A DNA stretch of 64,000 nt. It comes from Gammaproteobacteria bacterium. GTDB lineage: Bacteria; Pseudomonadota; Gammaproteobacteria; Steroidobacterales; Steroidobacteraceae. The translations under genes were made by a program, and so were the position numbers. The DNA is taken from NCBI GenBank assembly GCA_003134045.1, contig PLAH01000125.1:31828-95827 (forward strand). The letters are read 5' to 3'. The notes beneath the pieces were generated by a model that had not been told where the DNA came from, made no database searches, and saw nothing but the letters and a program-made list of their open reading frames with translations. This document shows positions 9,522 to 18,366 of the stretch, one piece after another. Positions within the stretch are counted from its first letter, which is position 1. Every line of letters starts with the position of its first letter.

Positions 9522-11792
9522 CTACGGCGTCGCGATCGCACGGTCCAACCTTTCACTGTAAGCGTTCAGTGAGTGCGCGACCACCCCAATATATCGATTT
9601 GCCTCGCTCCAACGGCGCTCCTCGAGCGCTTCGCGGATGCCCGGGAGGGTTTTGACGCCGTAACCAGTGTGCAATCCGGGCGCGTACAGCATGTGCCGGT
9701 ACCACTCGCGCCCCGGCAACCCTCGAGGATCGGTCAGGGCCTGCTCGAGCCCCCCTAAGGCTGCGTTGAGCCGCAGACGCGCCGCATTCGCGGGACCCCC
9801 CGCCATGGCGACCCGGGCATACGCCGCGTCGAACCCCGCGGCGCTCGTTTTGAGGCGCGCGACGGCGGCGTCGAGCGGCGCAAAGTCCAGATTGGGAACC
9901 TCATCCGCACGCGCGGGCGCCGCACGCGGTTGGCGCGGATCCTCCGCGAATCGATAGGAGCCGTCGTCCAGCAACGTATCGAGTTCGCGGCTCTTCTCGC
10001 GCATCCCGTCGATGAGCTTGTGCACTTCATCGTCGTAGGCGGCCACGGAATCGGCGAAATCACCTTGCGCTGTCGGCAGCAGGTCCGCTTGCGCCGCGCG
10101 CAGCACGATCCGACCCACCACCTGCGCCAGGGCCACGCCATATTGGAAGGTGGGATCCACGAAGCGGCGAAAATGATCGAACGAATCGTAGGCCGAATGA
10201 TAAACGCCGTACTCGGCCTCGCCGTGAAACTCGACGTTCAATGAACTCACGCCCAAATGCTGCAAAAAGGGCGTGAAGTCGGACCCCGAGCCGAGCGCGC
10301 CCAACGGCACATCGCCGCCGGTGTCGAAGGCGCGGCCGGCTTCATACGCCGCGACGCGCCGCACCGCGACGGCGCGCGTGCGCACCGATCCAGCGGTTTC
10401 CGGATCCTGCACGTCGCGCGCAGCTTGATTGACGAACTGCTGCAAGCTGTGGCTGCCCTGCACGTCCAGCGTGCCGCGGCTGTTCATGTCGGAATTGATG
10501 TAAAGCGCCGCCTTCGCCTGCAGTTCGGCGGCGTGGGCTTCCACCCACTCGGTCGACCCGAGGAGGCCTGGCTCCTCGCCGTCCCAGCTCGCGTACACCA
10601 ACGTGCGGCGCGGTCTCCAGCCTTCTTTGGCAAGCTTGCCGATGGCTTTCGCCTCGGCCATCAGCGCGACGTGGCCGGAAAACGGATCGGCCGCGCCGAA
10701 CACCCAGGCATCGTGATGATTGCCGCGGACGATCCAGCGGTCCGGCTCCTCCGAGCCGCGAATTTTCGCGATGACATCGTAGATTGGCTTCTGCTGCCAG
10801 TCGGACTGCACCTTCAAATGCACCCGCGCCGGGCCGGGGCCCAGGTGGTAGGCAAGCGGCAGACCGCCGCGCCAGGCGGGGGGCGCCACCCGGCCGCCCA
10901 ACGCCGCGAGCAGCGGCCCCGCGTCGGCGTAGGAAATCGGCAGCACCGGAATCTTTAAAATGGTGATGGCATCCTGCAGCGCCAGCCGTTTGGCACCCGC
11001 CGTCGAGCCGATACCCGGGGTCAACGGGTCGCCGCTGTACAGCGTCAAATCCTGCACCGAACCGCGCTGCACACCGTCGGGCGGACGGTAGCCCCCCCGC
11101 GGATAGGTATCGCCGGCGCCGTAGCCATCGTCCCGCGGATCCGAATAGATCAGGCAACCGATGGCGCCGTGCTCGTAGGCCAGCTTGGGCTTGAGCCCCC
11201 GCCAGCCGCCGCCGTAGCGTGCGAGCACGATGCGGCCTTTGACGCTGACGCCCAGGGCGTCGAGTTCCTTGTAGTCGTCGGGCATCCCCTGATTGACGTA
11301 GACGAGTTCCGCCGTCACGTCGCCGTCCGCGCCATACACGTTGTAGGGCGGCAGTTCGTCCGCGACTTGGGCGGACGTGGCATCGCCGTCGACCGGGGGT
11401 TCGCGCAATGTCGCGATGAATCGGCCGGGAGCGACCAGCTCCACGATTTCCTCGCGAGGCGTCGGGTAGAGCACCGAGAACTGCTCGATCGAGGCATCCC
11501 AGCCCCATTCGCGAAATTTCTGCAGGATGAATTCGGCGTTGGCCTTATCGTGCGCGCTGCCGACGTGATTCGGAGCGGCCGATAATTGCTGCATCCAAGC
11601 CCGCAGATCCGCCGCGGACAGCGCGGCGTCGAAGCGCTGTTCCAATCGCTGCTGCAGCGCCGCGGTGCGCGCTGAGAATCCCTGCAGATCGGCGACGCCG
11701 GGGGTGCCGGGGACGGCAGCTACGGCCAGCGCGAGCGGTGCGATCAAGCCCATCAACAGCGCGCCTCGATGACGCTTCAGAGCCGCTAACAT
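9522..11792 (-). CDS. M28-family zinc peptidase with PA and transferrin-receptor-like dimerisation domains (NAALADase/PSMA-like)
   Basis: Track ORF 756 aa. Signal peptide. RGNHHDAWVFGAADP and SWDGEEPGLLGSTEWVE zinc-ligand motifs. C-terminal PGREWYRHMLYAPG... dimerisation-domain signature. Confidence 0.85.
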   Translation of the reverse strand: MLAALKRHRGALLMGLIAPLALAVAAVPGTPGVADLQGFSARTAALQQRLEQRFDAALSAADLRAWMQQLSAAPNHVGSAHDKANAEFILQKFREWGWDASIEQFSVLYPTPREEIVELVAPGRFIATLREPPVDGDATSAQVADELPPYNVYGADGDVTAELVYVNQGMPDDYKELDALGVSVKGRIVLARYGGGWRGLKPKLAYEHGAIGCLIYSDPRDDGYGAGDTYPRGGYRPPDGVQRGSVQDLTLYSGDPLTPGIGSTAGAKRLALQDAITILKIPVLPISYADAGPLLAALGGRVAPPAWRGGLPLAYHLGPGPARVHLKVQSDWQQKPIYDVIAKIRGSEEPDRWIVRGNHHDAWVFGAADPFSGHVALMAEAKAIGKLAKEGWRPRRTLVYASWDGEEPGLLGSTEWVEAHAAELQAKAALYINSDMNSRGTLDVQGSHSLQQFVNQAARDVQDPETAGSVRTRAVAVRRVAAYEAGRAFDTGGDVPLGALGSGSDFTPFLQHLGVSSLNVEFHGEAEYGVYHSAYDSFDHFRRFVDPTFQYGVALAQVVGRIVLRAAQADLLPTAQGDFADSVAAYDDEVHKLIDGMREKSRELDTLLDDGSYRFAEDPRQPRAAPARADEVPNLDFAPLDAAVARLKTSAAGFDAAYARVAMAGGPANAARLRLNAALGGLEQALTDPRGLPGREWYRHMLYAPGLHTGYGVKTLPGIREALEERRWSEANRYIGVVAHSLNAYSERLDRAIATP

Positions 11793-11814: not shown

Positions 11815-12597
11815 TCAATCGCGGATGCCGGTGCCCCTGTTCAGCAAGGTGACGGCCAGCGCGAACATGACGATCACCGCCGACACCATGATCCCGTAGG
11901 CCAGCCGCAGATCGACGTCCGACGTGCCGAGAAAGCCGTAACGGAATGCGCTCACCATGTACAGAATGGGATTCAGGTGCGACACGGCCAACGCCCACGG
12001 CGGCAGCATCTTGATCGAATAGAACACGCCGCCGAGATAGGTGAGCGGCGCGAGCACGAAGGTCGGAAACCAGGATATCTGGTCGAAATTCTTGGCGAAC
12101 AGCGCGTTGACGAACCCGCCCAGCGCAAACACGATGCTGGTCAGCAGCACCGCCGACAGCACCGCGAAGACATGCGTCACGGTAAAATGCGTGAAGCAGA
12201 AAGCGACGACGGTGACCACCGAGCCCACCAAGAGGCCGCGCAGCACGCCGCCGGCGACGTAGCCCGTCAGGATCAGCCAGTTCGGCATCGGCGATACCAG
12301 GAGTTCCTCGAGATGCTTGCCGAACTTGGCGCCGAAAAAAGACGACACCACGTTGCCGTACGAATTGGTGATGACCGTCATCATGATGAGGCCGGGGGCG
12401 ATGAACTGCATGTAATCGTAACCGCCGACCTGACCCACCCGCTTGCCGATCAAGCTGCCGAAAATGACGAAGTAGAGCGTCGCAGTCACCACCGGCGGCA
12501 CGATGGTCTGGCCCCAGATGCGGACGATGCGATTGAACTCGCGAATGATGATGGTCGAGAATCCGACCCATTCGGCGCGCGCGCGCGAGGCAGCCAC
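11815..12597 (-). CDS. ABC-2 type transporter permease (YadH-like)
   Basis: Track ORF 260 aa, six hydrophobic segments, directly downstream of the ATPase gene. Confidence 0.85.
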   Translation of the reverse strand: MAASRARAEWVGFSTIIIREFNRIVRIWGQTIVPPVVTATLYFVIFGSLIGKRVGQVGGYDYMQFIAPGLIMMTVITNSYGNVVSSFFGAKFGKHLEELLVSPMPNWLILTGYVAGGVLRGLLVGSVVTVVAFCFTHFTVTHVFAVLSAVLLTSIVFALGGFVNALFAKNFDQISWFPTFVLAPLTYLGGVFYSIKMLPPWALAVSHLNPILYMVSAFRYGFLGTSDVDLRLAYGIMVSAVIVMFALAVTLLNRGTGIRD

Positions 12598-12600
12598 GCC

Positions 12601-13536
12601 TCAGGAACCTTGGGCCGCAGCGCGAGCGCTGACATCGACCAGGCGGATGAACAGCTCTTCGAGCCGGTTGACCTTGTTGCGCATGCTGTTCACGACGATG
12701 CCCTGCGTCGATAGCTGCGCGAAAATATCGTTCAAATTCTGCCCCTTGGAGACTTCCACCTCGAGCGTATGCGGGTCGGGAAGCGTCGTTCGGAATCCTT
12801 CGAGCCGCGGCGCCGCGGCGAGGGATTCGCTCAGGTTGAACACGAAGATCTCCGTCTGCAGCTTGCGCAGCACATTCGCCATGGTGTCGCGCTCGATGAT
12901 GCGCCCGCCCTCGATGATGGCGACGTTGCGGCACAAGCTCTCGGCTTCTTCCAGGTAATGGGTGGTCAAGATGATGGTCGTACCGCGCTCGTTGATGTCG
13001 CGCAGGAATTCCCACATCGAGCGGCGGATCTCGATGTCGACGCCGGCGGTCGGTTCGTCCAGGATCAGGAGCTTGGGCTCGTGCATCAAGGCCCGGGCGA
13101 TCATGAGCCGGCGCTTCATGCCGCCGGACAGGGAACGCGCGATCGAGTTTCGGCGGTCCCACAATTGCAGCTGCTTCAAGTACTTCTCCGCGCGTTGCTT
13201 GGCGAGCGGCCGCGGAATGCCGTAGAAGCCGGCTTGATTGACGACGATGGTGAAAACCGACTCGAACATGTTGAAATTCATTTCCTGCGGCACCACGCCG
13301 ATACAGGATTTGGCCGTCTCGAGTTCCCGATCGATGTCGTGCCCAAAGACCTCGACGACGCCGCTGGTCTTGTTGACCAAGGACGTTACGATGCCGATGG
13401 CGGTGGTCTTGCCCGCGCCGTTCGGTCCCAGCAGCGCAAAAAAATCGCCTTCCGCCACCTCGAGATCGATCCCTTTGAGCGCTGTGATGCCGTTTTTGTA
13501 GATCTTGGTGAGCTGGCGGAGGACGAGGGCTTGCAT
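12601..13536 (-). CDS. ABC transporter ATP-binding protein (YadG-like)
   Basis: Track ORF 311 aa. Walker A GPNGAGKTT, signature LSGGMKRRL, Walker B LLILDEPT. Confidence 0.9.
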   Translation of the reverse strand: MQALVLRQLTKIYKNGITALKGIDLEVAEGDFFALLGPNGAGKTTAIGIVTSLVNKTSGVVEVFGHDIDRELETAKSCIGVVPQEMNFNMFESVFTIVVNQAGFYGIPRPLAKQRAEKYLKQLQLWDRRNSIARSLSGGMKRRLMIARALMHEPKLLILDEPTAGVDIEIRRSMWEFLRDINERGTTIILTTHYLEEAESLCRNVAIIEGGRIIERDTMANVLRKLQTEIFVFNLSESLAAAPRLEGFRTTLPDPHTLEVEVSKGQNLNDIFAQLSTQGIVVNSMRNKVNRLEELFIRLVDVSARAAAQGS

Positions 13537-13591
13537 AGGAGCCGCGTAGCCTAAACCTCGCGAGGCTCCGCCCGCAACTCGAAGGCCGCCG

Positions 13592-14212
13592 CTAGCCCAA
13601 ATGCGCCGCCGCCGTCAATTGCAGTCCCTGCAGCTGCGCCCTGCGCAGCTGCGCCGAGTTCGAGCGGGTGGCGGCGCGCGTCAGGGCGCTCCAGTAAGTC
13701 GGGCAATCGCTCCATCTCGCGGACAGATGGGCGGCTTCGGTGGCTGCCAAACCGGCCAGACAGTCGATGGTCAGCGCGCGAAACGCGGCCACCGTCACGT
13801 CGTTCATACCGAGCAACAAGCGCGCCGCGAGTTTGTCGACGGATGCCACGTGCCAGGCGAAGAACAGGGCCATACGCGCGAAATCGACCCTGGTGTCGTC
13901 GAGCGGCGGCGCGTCGGCAACGTTCCACGAGGAATCCGGATGCAACCGCGTCCGCCAATGCGAATCGTCGTGAAACTTAAGGTCGAACAGGGCGTAGGGG
14001 CAGTTCGCGGCCGATTTTTTCTGGGCCGGCGTCAGCGGCGCGATCCGCAACTGAACGTCAGGCGGCAATCTCGCGAATCCGCACGAATTCCAAGCGCGCG
14101 GCGCGGCGCCGATCAAGTCGAGAAATCGATGGTTCAGTCCGCGCACCGATTCGAGCATTGCGGCGGAAACGTGCGACTCGCGCGCCCACCTTTTGACGTT
14201 AGCTTCCTGCAT
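13592..14212 (-). CDS. Hypothetical protein containing two tandem FlhD-like repeats
   Basis: Track ORF 13592..14272 trimmed to ATG at complement 14210-14212 (GGGAGG upstream). Both halves align by eye to the E. coli FlhD core ([35 protein letters not shown]). Repeat 1 is GFARLPPDVQLRIAPLTPAQKKSAANCPYALFDLKFHD. Repeat 2 is DKLAARLLLGMNDVTVAAFRALTIDCLAGLAATEAAHLSARWSD. Confidence 0.6.
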   Translation of the reverse strand: MQEANVKRWARESHVSAAMLESVRGLNHRFLDLIGAAPRAWNSCGFARLPPDVQLRIAPLTPAQKKSAANCPYALFDLKFHDDSHWRTRLHPDSSWNVADAPPLDDTRVDFARMALFFAWHVASVDKLAARLLLGMNDVTVAAFRALTIDCLAGLAATEAAHLSARWSDCPTYWSALTRAATRSNSAQLRRAQLQGLQLTAAAHLG

Positions 14213-14387
14213 AACCGCCTCCCATGGCGACCCGTGTCTCTCGGATTCGAGGTTCCGTGCATTCCTTGGCAAATGCGGCGTTAATTGCCCGCTACCCTCT
14301 TGGCAAGTACGCTAACTTTGTGATTAATTTCTGTCAAATTATTTTGTGCCCGAAAACACGCGAATTGCATAGGAAAAGGAGTTCACC

Positions 14388-14975
14388 ATGCGAGTGTCAG
14401 ACGACCGATACACCCGGGAGCGCGAGCGCCTGGATCTTGCGCTGCGTTTCATCCGCCACGAGGCGCGCACCTTCACCATTCGGCAGTGGACCGGGCTCAG
14501 CGACGATCGAATCCGCAAGCTCTACCGCACCTACGTCCTGGAGACCGATGCCCAACAGGTGCACCGGCACCGCGGCAAATCGCCGCGTCAGGCGGCGTTC
14601 TTCTTCAAGAACCCGGAACTGAATTTCCAGGCCGCGCAGTTGGCAAGCTTGTTCGTGGTTTACGGTTTGCTCTGCGGTTCGGATGGCGGGGTCAAATCGC
14701 GCTATCGGGTCGGCTCCCTCGAGTCCGGCACCCTGCTTTGCCAGGTCTACGAATCGTATCTCGAACTGCATGCGCCGGTGAGCATCTCCTTCGAACACGC
14801 CTGGTTCTTGCTGCTGGCGCTATCGCGGCACGATGAATTGAGCGTGGCACCCTGCAGCGTCTGCGGCGGCGTGCGCCTGCGCGATCTGCTGTCGACGCGG
14901 CGGTTCGACTGCAGCAACTGCGCATCGGCCGCGGCCGCCGCGCGGGAATTCAGCGAAGGCGCCGCGCCCTGCTAG
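14388..14975 (+). CDS. FlhC-family transcriptional activator-like protein
   Basis: Track ORF 195 aa, AAGGAG 6 nt upstream. LDLALRFIRHEARTFTIRQWTGLSDDRIRKLYRTY, YESYLE, and SFEHAWFLLLALSRHDELSVAPCSVCGG...FDCSNC parallel E. coli FlhC, including the four zinc-site Cys. Confidence 0.75.
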   Translation: MRVSDDRYTRERERLDLALRFIRHEARTFTIRQWTGLSDDRIRKLYRTYVLETDAQQVHRHRGKSPRQAAFFFKNPELNFQAAQLASLFVVYGLLCGSDGGVKSRYRVGSLESGTLLCQVYESYLELHAPVSISFEHAWFLLLALSRHDELSVAPCSVCGGVRLRDLLSTRRFDCSNCASAAAAAREFSEGAAPC

Positions 14976-14985
14976 AATCCGGCGC

Positions 14986-15930
14986 ATGCAGAAAAGGAAC
15001 GTCTTCGCCGGTCCTTACTTGGATCGCGCCGCTCATTTGCGCCAGGACGCGGAATGGTTTGCCGATGCGCTCGCGGACGCCAACAGCCGGGTGATCCCGG
15101 TCTGGAATTCGCGCAGCCTGGTCTACGAGGGCGACGACCCGCGGGCAGCGTTCATCGCGCTGGGCGACGTACCGCCGGAGCGGCGGGCCTTGAGCGACCT
15201 GATCCTGTTGGGACGCATCGACACCACGAGTTTCTTTGCCTATGAACTCGACGGCCTCGATGCGCCGCAGCTGTTGCCGGGCGCGCGTTTCGAGGACCTG
15301 CGGCTCGTGGCCTCGCTGCTGCCGCCCGAGGAGGCGGGACTGCTGGGCTACGCGCGCGCGCTGGTTTCGTGGCGGCGGCGGCATCGCTACTGCGGGACGT
15401 GCGGGGCGACGACGGTGCCGGTCAAAGGCGGCCACGTGCTCGTGTGCACCAATCCCGCATGCCGCCACGAACAGTTTCCGCGTCTCGACCCCGCCATCAT
15501 CGTGCTGGTCAGCGACGGCGATCGAGCGCTGCTCGGGCGCCAAGCCTCATGGCCCGTGGGCCGCTACTCCACCATCGCCGGTTTCGTCGAGCCCGGCGAG
15601 TCGCTCGAGGATGCGGTGGCGCGCGAAGTGCTGGAGGAAACCGGCGTGGTGGTGGATTCGATCGAATATCACTCCTCGCAGCCGTGGCCGTTTCCGGCAT
15701 CGCTGATGCTGGGATTCACCGCCCACGCGGTCACGCACGAGATACGGCGGCGCGACGAGGAACTCGAAGATGCCCAATGGTTTACCCGAGCGGACATTGC
15801 GGGCGGGGTGCCGTTGCTGCCGCCCAGGCAGTCCATTTCCTTCAGTTTGATCGAGCATTGGTTCGACGCCGGAAGCGACCGCCCCTTGAGCGATTTTCAC
15901 GGCACCACGTCCTGGCCGCCGCCGCGCTAG
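14986..15930 (+). CDS. nudC: NAD+ diphosphatase (NADH pyrophosphatase), Nudix family
   Basis: Track ORF 314 aa. Zinc ribbon YCGTCG...CTNPAC, Nudix box GFVEPGESLEDAVAREVLEETGV, SQPWPFPAS motif. Confidence 0.9.
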   Translation: MQKRNVFAGPYLDRAAHLRQDAEWFADALADANSRVIPVWNSRSLVYEGDDPRAAFIALGDVPPERRALSDLILLGRIDTTSFFAYELDGLDAPQLLPGARFEDLRLVASLLPPEEAGLLGYARALVSWRRRHRYCGTCGATTVPVKGGHVLVCTNPACRHEQFPRLDPAIIVLVSDGDRALLGRQASWPVGRYSTIAGFVEPGESLEDAVAREVLEETGVVVDSIEYHSSQPWPFPASLMLGFTAHAVTHEIRRRDEELEDAQWFTRADIAGGVPLLPPRQSISFSLIEHWFDAGSDRPLSDFHGTTSWPPPR

Positions 15931-16595: not shown

Positions 16596-16979
16596 CTACG
16601 CCGAGGTCTCCACACCGGAGGACAACGGCTCCGACACCGGCTCGTTCTGCAACGATTCCGGCGGCTCCGTCACGGGCGCTGCCGCAACCGGCGCGACGCT
16701 CTTCGGCCATACGACCTTTTTCTTGGCGGCCTTCTTCACGACTTTTCGAGCGGCCGGTGCCGCCTTGGCCTGCGCTTTCCTGTGCGCCGGCTTCGTCGCC
16801 TTCTTGGCGGCCTTCTTGGCGGCCTTCTTCGCGACCTTTTTCTTGCTCGACGTCTTGGACTTGCTCGACGTCTTCGTCGGGCGCGCCTTCTTCTTCAAGA
16901 CTTTGGTCTTGGTGCCTGTGCGTTTTGCTTTCGCCACAGGACGCTTCTTCGCTTTGGTCTTCTTCTTGGCCATGATCAA
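16596..16979 (-). CDS. Lys/Ala-rich histone-H1-like (AlgP-like) basic protein
   Basis: Track ORF 127 aa. MIMAKKKTKAKKRPVAKAKR...KKAAKKAAKKATKPA low-complexity basic repeats with an acidic/neutral tail. Confidence 0.7.
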   Translation of the reverse strand: MIMAKKKTKAKKRPVAKAKRTGTKTKVLKKKARPTKTSSKSKTSSKKKVAKKAAKKAAKKATKPAHRKAQAKAAPAARKVVKKAAKKKVVWPKSVAPVAAAPVTEPPESLQNEPVSEPLSSGVETSA

Positions 16980-17754: not shown

Positions 17755-18366
17755 CTAGGGTTCGCCGGCCTCGAATTCCGCGGTGACCGTATTCTGTACG
17801 GCATCCGGCGTGCTACCCGCTACCGGGTTCGGTGCCCCGGCGGACGGCGCGGCGGCCGCATTCTTCTTCACGCGATTGGCGGCGGCCATCCTGCCGATGA
17901 CCGATTTGGCGACTTCCGCGGCCGACAGCAGCTTCGGAGTGCCGGGCTTGGCCGCCGCGGACGTACGGGCGGCGTTGGCGGATTTGGATTTCGCGGGCCG
18001 CGGCGTCTTCGCCTTGGCCGGTTTTGCCGCCTTGGCTGGAATTGCGGCCTTCGCGGGCGAGGTGGTCTTCACCGTCTTTGCGCGGGGCTTGGGTTTGCCG
18101 CCGGCGGCCGTGCCTGCGCGGGCCGTCTTCGCGGCAGCGGCTTGCTTGATGGCGGCCGCAGCGGCCTCGACTTTCTTGCGCGCCTGCTTCGCGGTCTTTT
18201 TCGCGGCCTTGGACAGCTTGCGAGCTTTTTTAAGGTCCGCCTTTGCGGATCGGACCAGCTGTTTCGCCGCCTCGGCACGCGCCGCGGCCTTCGCGGCATC
18301 GTCGCCCAAGCGTTGCACGGCGGAGCTGGCCGGAATTCGAGTCGCGCTTACGGGGGTAGTGGCCAC
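17755..18366 (-). CDS. Ala/Lys-rich histone-H1-like (AlgP-like) basic protein
   Basis: Track ORF 203 aa. KKARKLSKAAKKTAKQARKKVEAAAAAIKQAAAAKTA...PAKAAKPAKAKTPRPAKSK repeats. Confidence 0.7.
   Translation of the reverse strand: MATTPVSATRIPASSAVQRLGDDAAKAAARAEAAKQLVRSAKADLKKARKLSKAAKKTAKQARKKVEAAAAAIKQAAAAKTARAGTAAGGKPKPRAKTVKTTSPAKAAIPAKAAKPAKAKTPRPAKSKSANAARTSAAAKPGTPKLLSAAEVAKSVIGRMAAANRVKKNAAAAPSAGAPNPVAGSTPDAVQNTVTAEFEAGEP

Follow-up and report, generated by a model that had tools for sequence, protein, structure and literature searches.

A divergent gene pair of Steroidobacteraceae encoding a tandem FlhD-like protein and a distant FlhC homologue

We analysed a divergent gene pair at positions 13592-14975 of a 64,000-nt stretch (the window) of contig PLAH01000125.1, which belongs to a gammaproteobacterium of the Steroidobacteraceae (GCA_003134045.1). 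The pair consists of two open reading frames (ORFs) separated by a 175-bp spacer, one on the plus strand encoding an FlhC-like protein of 195 aa and one on the minus strand encoding a protein of 206 aa, here called FlhD2, in which an FlhD-like unit appears to be present twice in tandem. Overall, we put the probability at about 60% that the locus encodes a two-subunit regulator of the FlhDC class with a fused FlhD and divergent operons. The pair is real, conserved and undescribed, and its function as a regulator is proposed. Both ORFs were found at the coordinates and sizes given in the original prediction, a reading of this DNA made from the letters alone, with a good Shine-Dalgarno sequence at both starts (AAGGAG and GGGAGG). 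The motifs quoted there were likewise all present, namely PCSVCGG and FDCSNC in the FlhC-like protein, ALFDLKFHD in the first half of FlhD2 and HLSARWSD in the second. An upstream TTG at 14272 would extend the minus-strand ORF to 226 aa, but FlhD2 was taken as 206 aa because the ATG at 14212 is the start that is conserved in an alignment with 39 relatives (MQ[DE]A..., MQEA in the window).

Two FlhD-like halves and a distant FlhC homologue

An exhaustive profile search with FlhD2 returned 1022 representative clusters at E <= 1e-3 and 510 at E <= 1e-10. Of the 150 clusters listed, nearly all were 200-245 aa long and matched over their full length, so that the two-part architecture defines the family, in contrast to the small single-domain type of FlhD (~105-120 aa). 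Two alignments were used, a first one of 40 close relatives (A1) and a second one of 115 family members reaching ~25 % identity (A2). The Pfam FlhD model (PF05247) was matched singly by 47 of the 115 members of A2, with a best E of 5.5e-7. Against the PDB, the N-terminal half of the A2 profile (positions 15-107) found the FlhD chains 8j56_A (E 2.3e-9) and 5hxg_B (E 7.5e-5), while the C-terminal half (positions 123-198) independently found residues 18-92 of E. coli FlhD (1g8e; E 1.3e-4 among 177,635 sequences), which was its sole significant match. No chain other than FlhD came below an E of 0.3 with the A2 profile.

Comparison of the halves by hhalign led to the same family. The N-terminal half aligned with a three-sequence FlhD profile over 80 columns (P 1.7e-7), the C-terminal half aligned with it over 69 columns, nearly the whole FlhD core (P 2.3e-5), and the two halves of A2 aligned with each other over 47-62 columns (P 2.8e-4). 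The register is common to the three alignments (...LG-helix-helix-[LFDLRF / LxxRW]-D...), and it is the one in which the halves had originally been paired by eye. The claim that each half resembles FlhD was thus upheld by significant profile and hhalign matches; an absence of profile matches, named in advance as the outcome that would speak against it, was not what we found.

The structure model agreed with the sequence comparisons. With A2, AlphaFold2 (AF2) returned a single globule with a predicted local distance difference test (pLDDT) score of 90.3 and a predicted template modelling (pTM) score of 0.87, whereas the shallow A1 gave a poor model (pLDDT 44.7); both the model and the half-to-half signal improved only once representatives of 25-50 % identity had been added in A2. 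The same order of elements, a long helix, a short helix, two further helices, a short strand and a helix, is repeated twice in the model: H17-36, H38-43, H51-57, H62-69, strand and H83-89 in the first half, and H106-125, H127-134, H138-145, H150-162, strand and H171-182 in the second. A Foldseek search against the PDB gave a probability of at least 0.8 only for FlhD chains (2avu_B, 1g8e and 4es4), aligned over ~50 columns with a root-mean-square deviation of 1.1-1.7 A and 29 % identity, a result that is consistent with an FlhD fold and not decisive. From the model, it is plausible that the two halves pack against each other like the subunits of an FlhD dimer. The second half is followed by a family-specific and highly conserved helix (H186-203), with L189, Q193, G196, L197, Q198, L199 and A201 invariant among the aligned relatives. 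Taken together, these results make it highly probable, and well supported, that the 206-aa protein is a tandem FlhD.

A separate observation concerns DUF2857, the Pfam family of BisC, which weakly matched 3 of the 115 FlhD2-family members (best E 3.3e-5); these sequence matches hint that helices like those of FlhD may also occur in DUF2857 proteins.

The FlhC-like protein was recognised by the Pfam FlhC model (PF05280) as a single sequence (E 1.2e-5), with residues 10-186 aligned to positions 8-168 of the 173 in the profile, and by the NCBIfam FlhC model NF009365 (E 3.7e-6), where its 26.8 bits compare with an equivalog cut-off of 216; PF05280 matches are also precomputed for many of its relatives. 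A family profile built from 21 relatives matched the solved FlhC chains 8j56_C (E 5.2e-6, over N- and C-terminal stretches) and 2avu_E (E 0.01). The cysteines C156, C159, C175 and C178 are invariant among these relatives and align with the CxxC...CxxC zinc site of both chains, and the first 50 residues are nearly invariant down to relatives of 47-54 % identity. Because of the full-length Pfam alignment, the matches to FlhC structures and the invariant Cys4 site, the protein is truly homologous to FlhC, though very distantly, and is no equivalog of flagellar FlhC. The end-to-end likeness to FlhC, zinc site included, that had been seen by eye therefore holds.

The FlhC-like protein also ends, in most close relatives, in a conserved ...AAPC-COOH tail with cysteine as the last residue (14961-14972 in the window). 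The tail is preceded by a variable Ala/Pro-rich linker and is not found in canonical FlhC.

Conservation and neighbourhood of the pair

Conservation of the locus was assessed by scanning GTDB genomes, one for each species, of which 138 contained a relative, and the best 80 loci were inspected. Nearly all of these 80 are labelled as Steroidobacteraceae, Steroidobacterales or unclassified gammaproteobacterial metagenome-assembled genomes (MAGs), and the source names returned for the protein family were all Steroidobacter(aceae) or unclassified proteobacterial MAGs. The FlhC-like gene lies directly upstream of flhD2 on the opposite strand in 79 of the 80 loci, and in the sole exception the contig extends just 341 bp in that direction; the divergent orientation, claimed originally for this DNA, was thereby confirmed in the window and well beyond it. 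Identity to the window proteins across the loci is 66-89 % for the FlhC-like protein and 47-64 % for the double-FlhD protein. The divergent pair is also present in relatives of 25-35 % identity (loci L084-L086) and in the cultured Steroidobacter agaridevorans (L087; protein GCM10011487_01240), a species described as non-motile (PMC7966939). Rather than lying on an integrative and conjugative element (ICE), a plasmid or a genomic island, the pair sits in chromosomal synteny that is conserved across the best 80 species loci. The locus appears to be chromosomal, vertically inherited and specific to Steroidobacteraceae/Steroidobacterales.

Both genes are followed closely by a recurrent neighbour. 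The nudC gene, identified as a nicotinamide adenine dinucleotide (NAD+) diphosphatase by the equivalog model NF001299 (240 bits, cut-off 158), begins 10 nt past the stop of the FlhC-like gene in the window. Among 64 loci, 49 have nudC 9-13 nt past this stop, and the two genes remain linked in the distant relatives L084, L086 and L087. On the other side, an ABC exporter, with a permease matching NCBIfam PRK15066 (390 bits, cut-off 225) and a DrrA-like ATPase, starts 14-128 nt past the flhD2 stop in ~70 of 78 loci. Because of this spacing, the pair probably heads two divergent operons, flhC-like-nudC and flhD2-ABC exporter, and nudC is probably co-transcribed with the FlhC-like gene. The original prediction had named the flanking yadGH-like and nudC genes as housekeeping neighbours; their identities were right, but with operon-like spacing that recurs across loci they are more than mere neighbours.

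In S. agaridevorans no ABC exporter adjoins the pair, and its place (L087:10951-11684) is taken by a gene pair resembling a Gp49/HTH_37 toxin-antitoxin system and by a gene for a Y-family polymerase. The double-FlhD gene of this species is annotated as encoding 280 aa, which may result from a wrongly assigned start.

Table 1. Features of the divergent locus and its direct neighbours, in window coordinates.
Feature	Position	Strand	Basis
Gene for tandem-FlhD protein (FlhD2), 206 aa	13592..14212	-	ORF, conserved ATG and GGGAGG Shine-Dalgarno
Gene for FlhC-like protein, 195 aa	14388..14975	+	ORF and FlhC profile matches
FlhD2 repeat 1, residues ~14-93, end ...CPYALFDLKFHD	13934..14173	-	PDB FlhD profile match and hhalign
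FlhD2 repeat 2, residues ~115-184, AWHVA...LGM...HLSARWSD...YW	13661..13870	-	1g8e profile match and hhalign
FlhD2 conserved C-terminal helix, residues 186-203, LRRxQLxGLQLxAA	13604..13657	-	Invariant residues and predicted helix
Cys4 zinc-ribbon of FlhC-like protein (C156, C159, C175, C178)	14853..14921	+	Four Cys invariant
Divergent control region, 175 bp, common to both genes	14213..14387	.	Intergenic, AT-rich compared with flanks
Conserved core of control region, ~70 bp	14298..14370	.	Column conservation, 77 species loci
nudC (NAD+ diphosphatase)	14986..15930	+	NCBIfam NF001299 equivalog
yadGH-type ABC-2 exporter	11815..13536	-	ATPase 12601-13536, permease 11815-12597

The rest of the window is ordinary chromosome, with genes for prolyl oligopeptidase, arginine biosynthesis, PolA, resistance-nodulation-division (RND) pumps and cytochrome bd. 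Directly downstream of the exporter, a minus-strand gene (9522-11792) encodes a protein of 756 aa that combines PA, M28 peptidase and transferrin-receptor-like dimerisation domains, an architecture like that of glutamate carboxypeptidase II/PSMA, and that has no NCBIfam match at E <= 1e-10. Two further minus-strand ORFs, of 127 aa (16596-16979) and 203 aa (17755-18366), are Lys/Ala-rich, of low complexity and histone-H1/AlgP-like; both are also called as genes in identical metagenome contigs and have no Pfam match on record.

The shared control region

The spacer between the divergent genes measures 113-209 bp in 77 loci, and in the window its AT content exceeds that of its flanks. Its core of ~70 bp is mostly conserved at 90 % or more in these loci, where the adjacent double-FlhD proteins are ~50-60 % identical. 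Two sets of sigma-70-like promoter hexamers, back-to-back and overlapping, were picked by eye within it. The candidate promoter toward flhD2 has TTGACA (14337-14332), a 17-nt spacer and TAGCGT (14314-14309), and the one toward the FlhC-like gene has TTGGCA (14300-14305), a 17-nt spacer and ATTAAT (14323-14328). A repeat search of the control region found one 13-nt direct repeat (CTTGGCAA..), the second copy of which is not conserved; the 9-mer shows no enrichment across the window.

In some relatives (L035:5818-6000 and L047:5887-6000) the centre of the core reads TGACAgaaattTGTCA and holds a perfect 5-bp inverted repeat, to which TGACAgaaattAATCA corresponds in the window (14316-14337). At the equivalent place L084 carries a near-perfect palindrome, AATTGGCAAATTTTCGCCAATT. 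The palindromic centre of the core in relatives is a possible operator. A 22-mer of the core had no second copy within the window, and because it is unique there, no regulon can be deduced from it. A search of 13400-15200 against Rfam gave no match.

A proposed regulator, its alternatives and its meaning

In E. coli, FlhD is a tightly coupled dimer and FlhC is the subunit that contacts DNA. We propose that the fused 206-aa chain replaces the FlhD homodimer, so that the complex would be (FlhD-FlhD)2-C2 or (FlhD-FlhD)-C instead of FlhD4C2, and that its contact with DNA would be made by the FlhC-like subunit. In FlhD4C2 the four FlhD protomers are non-equivalent, two being peripheral and two internal, with one of each kind per dimer, and the DNA wraps around FlhC (PMC3510510). 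A duplication and fusion would hard-wire the dimer and leave each half free to adapt to a peripheral or an internal position, and such specialisation after fusion would explain why the halves are both like FlhD and yet barely like each other. The complex may control its own divergent promoters, and thereby nudC and the exporter, as well as distant targets; because the pair heads the two probable operons, its likeliest direct targets would be the pair itself, nudC and the exporter.

Similar to flagellar FlhD4C2 (2AVU/1G8E, 8J56), the pair combines an FlhC homologue carrying a CxxC...CxxC zinc site with a partner of FlhD fold, but flagellar FlhD is a 116-aa homodimer, whereas the two FlhD units here are fused in one chain. 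Unlike in the flhDC operon, the genes are divergent, adjoin no mot, che or flagellar genes and are present in a non-motile species, and the sequences are too distant from flagellar FlhDC to reach curated Pfam or NCBIfam cut-offs. Three tested features that define the known family are therefore lacking, namely a curated FlhC score, a single-domain FlhD and an operonic order of the D and C genes. Outside flagella, SetCD of SXT/R391 ICEs, AcaCD of IncA/C plasmids and SgaCD of SGI1 are heteromeric activators of the FlhDC family (PMC4542580, PMC4207636, PMC8373056), and the complex that we infer here from the genes would likewise be non-flagellar. These activators are operonic, have a single-domain D subunit, reside on mobile elements and activate transfer genes, in contrast to the stable chromosomal pair described here. 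The nearest precedent is BisDC of ICEclc, in which BisC is a DUF2857 protein that is FlhC-like by Phyre2, BisD is ParB-like, and there is feedback on the own promoter (PMC7423338). Both systems join a distant FlhC-like subunit to a non-canonical partner, but BisDC is ICE-borne and its ParB-type BisD lacks an FlhD domain, whereas the partner here is clearly FlhD-derived. We found no Pfam or NCBIfam model, and in our literature searches no paper, for a protein with FlhD in tandem or for a non-flagellar FlhDC pair on a chromosome; what the searches brought up on FlhDC-like proteins, FlhD-like proteins and tandem forms dealt solely with ICEs, plasmids and flagella.

Several results weigh against a fused-FlhD regulator at this locus. 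The 206-aa sequence by itself matched nothing in Pfam or NCBIfam, as expected from the earlier remark that it has no obvious family, and the FlhC-like protein scored 25.6 bits where the Pfam gathering cut-off is 27. The Foldseek E-values to FlhD were ~2, which is not significant, and covered ~50 residues. The half-to-half hhalign probability of 41 % denotes a weak similarity, and the shallow A1 alignment gave no significant half-to-half signal. In the control region, a promoter and terminator scan of 14100-14500 found nothing by its criteria, and because the hexamers fail the scan's promoter criteria, the sigma-70-like elements count as hypotheses; neither an inverted repeat nor a clear operator was found in the control region of the window, and in the distant clade the core is not conserved. 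Finally, tight linkage to nudC can reflect piggy-backing in an operon instead of regulation.

An alternative explanation is that the pair acts as the actual master regulator of flagella in Steroidobacteraceae, encoded remote from the flagellar clusters, with the fusion as a quirk of the lineage. Both proteins are FlhD and FlhC homologues, FlhDC of enterobacteria is generally known to control non-flagellar genes too, and several cultured Steroidobacter species other than S. agaridevorans are motile by a polar flagellum (PMC5979037). However, no flagellar, motility or chemotaxis genes were found in the 64-kb window or in the inspected related loci, non-motile S. agaridevorans retains the pair, and the sequences lie very far from those of flagellar FlhDC. 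Moreover, gammaproteobacteria normally control polar flagella by FleQ/FlrA-type sigma-54 activators instead of FlhDC, as is generally known. We therefore regard a flagellar role as unlikely.

It is also conceivable that only the N-terminal half derives from FlhD and that an unrelated helical domain forms the C-terminal half, in which case the protein may still dimerise like an ordinary FlhD. The weak similarity between the halves, the modest scores of the C-terminal half and the short Foldseek alignment would fit this, but the C-terminal half finds E. coli FlhD independently and as its only significant PDB match, it aligns with FlhD by hhalign over nearly the whole core, the three alignments keep one register (LG-x-helix-helix-strand-RF/RW-D), and the order of secondary-structure elements repeats. 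On this evidence, an unrelated C-terminal half is rather improbable, slightly more so than a flagellar role.

It is very unlikely that the pair is a domesticated remnant of a SetCD/AcaCD/SgaCD- or BisDC-type activator from a decayed ancient ICE or island: the other known non-flagellar FlhDC relatives do all activate ICEs, IncC plasmids or genomic islands (PMC4542580, PMC4207636), and the DUF2857 matches within the family lean the same way, but the nudC and ABC exporter neighbours recur across 80 species and in relatives of 30 % identity, no integrase, type IV secretion system (T4SS), relaxase or conjugation genes lie nearby in the window or the inspected loci, neither protein has a relative among 72,556 plasmids (tblastn) nor the FlhC-like protein among IMG/VR viral contigs, the GC content of the pair is typical of its flanks, and any mobile origin would predate the family and no longer describe the present function. 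The lack of flagellar or conjugation context, asserted at first for this DNA, thus extends to the related loci. The PADLOC defence models matched neither regulator.

Going beyond the fused two-subunit regulator itself, we tentatively suggest that the pair represents a hitherto unrecognised third branch of FlhDC, neither flagellar nor borne on mobile elements, in which an asymmetric pseudo-dimer would serve as a housekeeping regulator across Steroidobacterales, with nudC and the ABC-2 exporter in its core regulon; this wider proposal is possible but doubtful.

FlhDC-type regulators are known in two roles, as master switches of peritrichous flagella and as activators of transfer in ICEs, plasmids and islands. 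A stable chromosomal version, found throughout a family of soil bacteria and tied to nudC, would widen the uses of this regulator class. NudC is an NAD+/NADH diphosphatase and an enzyme that removes NAD caps from RNA, and if the wider proposal is true, an FlhDC-type switch would be linked to NAD or NAD-capped-RNA metabolism. The fused FlhD would also provide a natural experiment on FlhD4C2, since its diverged halves may reveal which surfaces are needed at each position while the stoichiometry is fixed. For the more than 1000 protein clusters now annotated as 'hypothetical protein', the analysis offers a name and a testable hypothesis.

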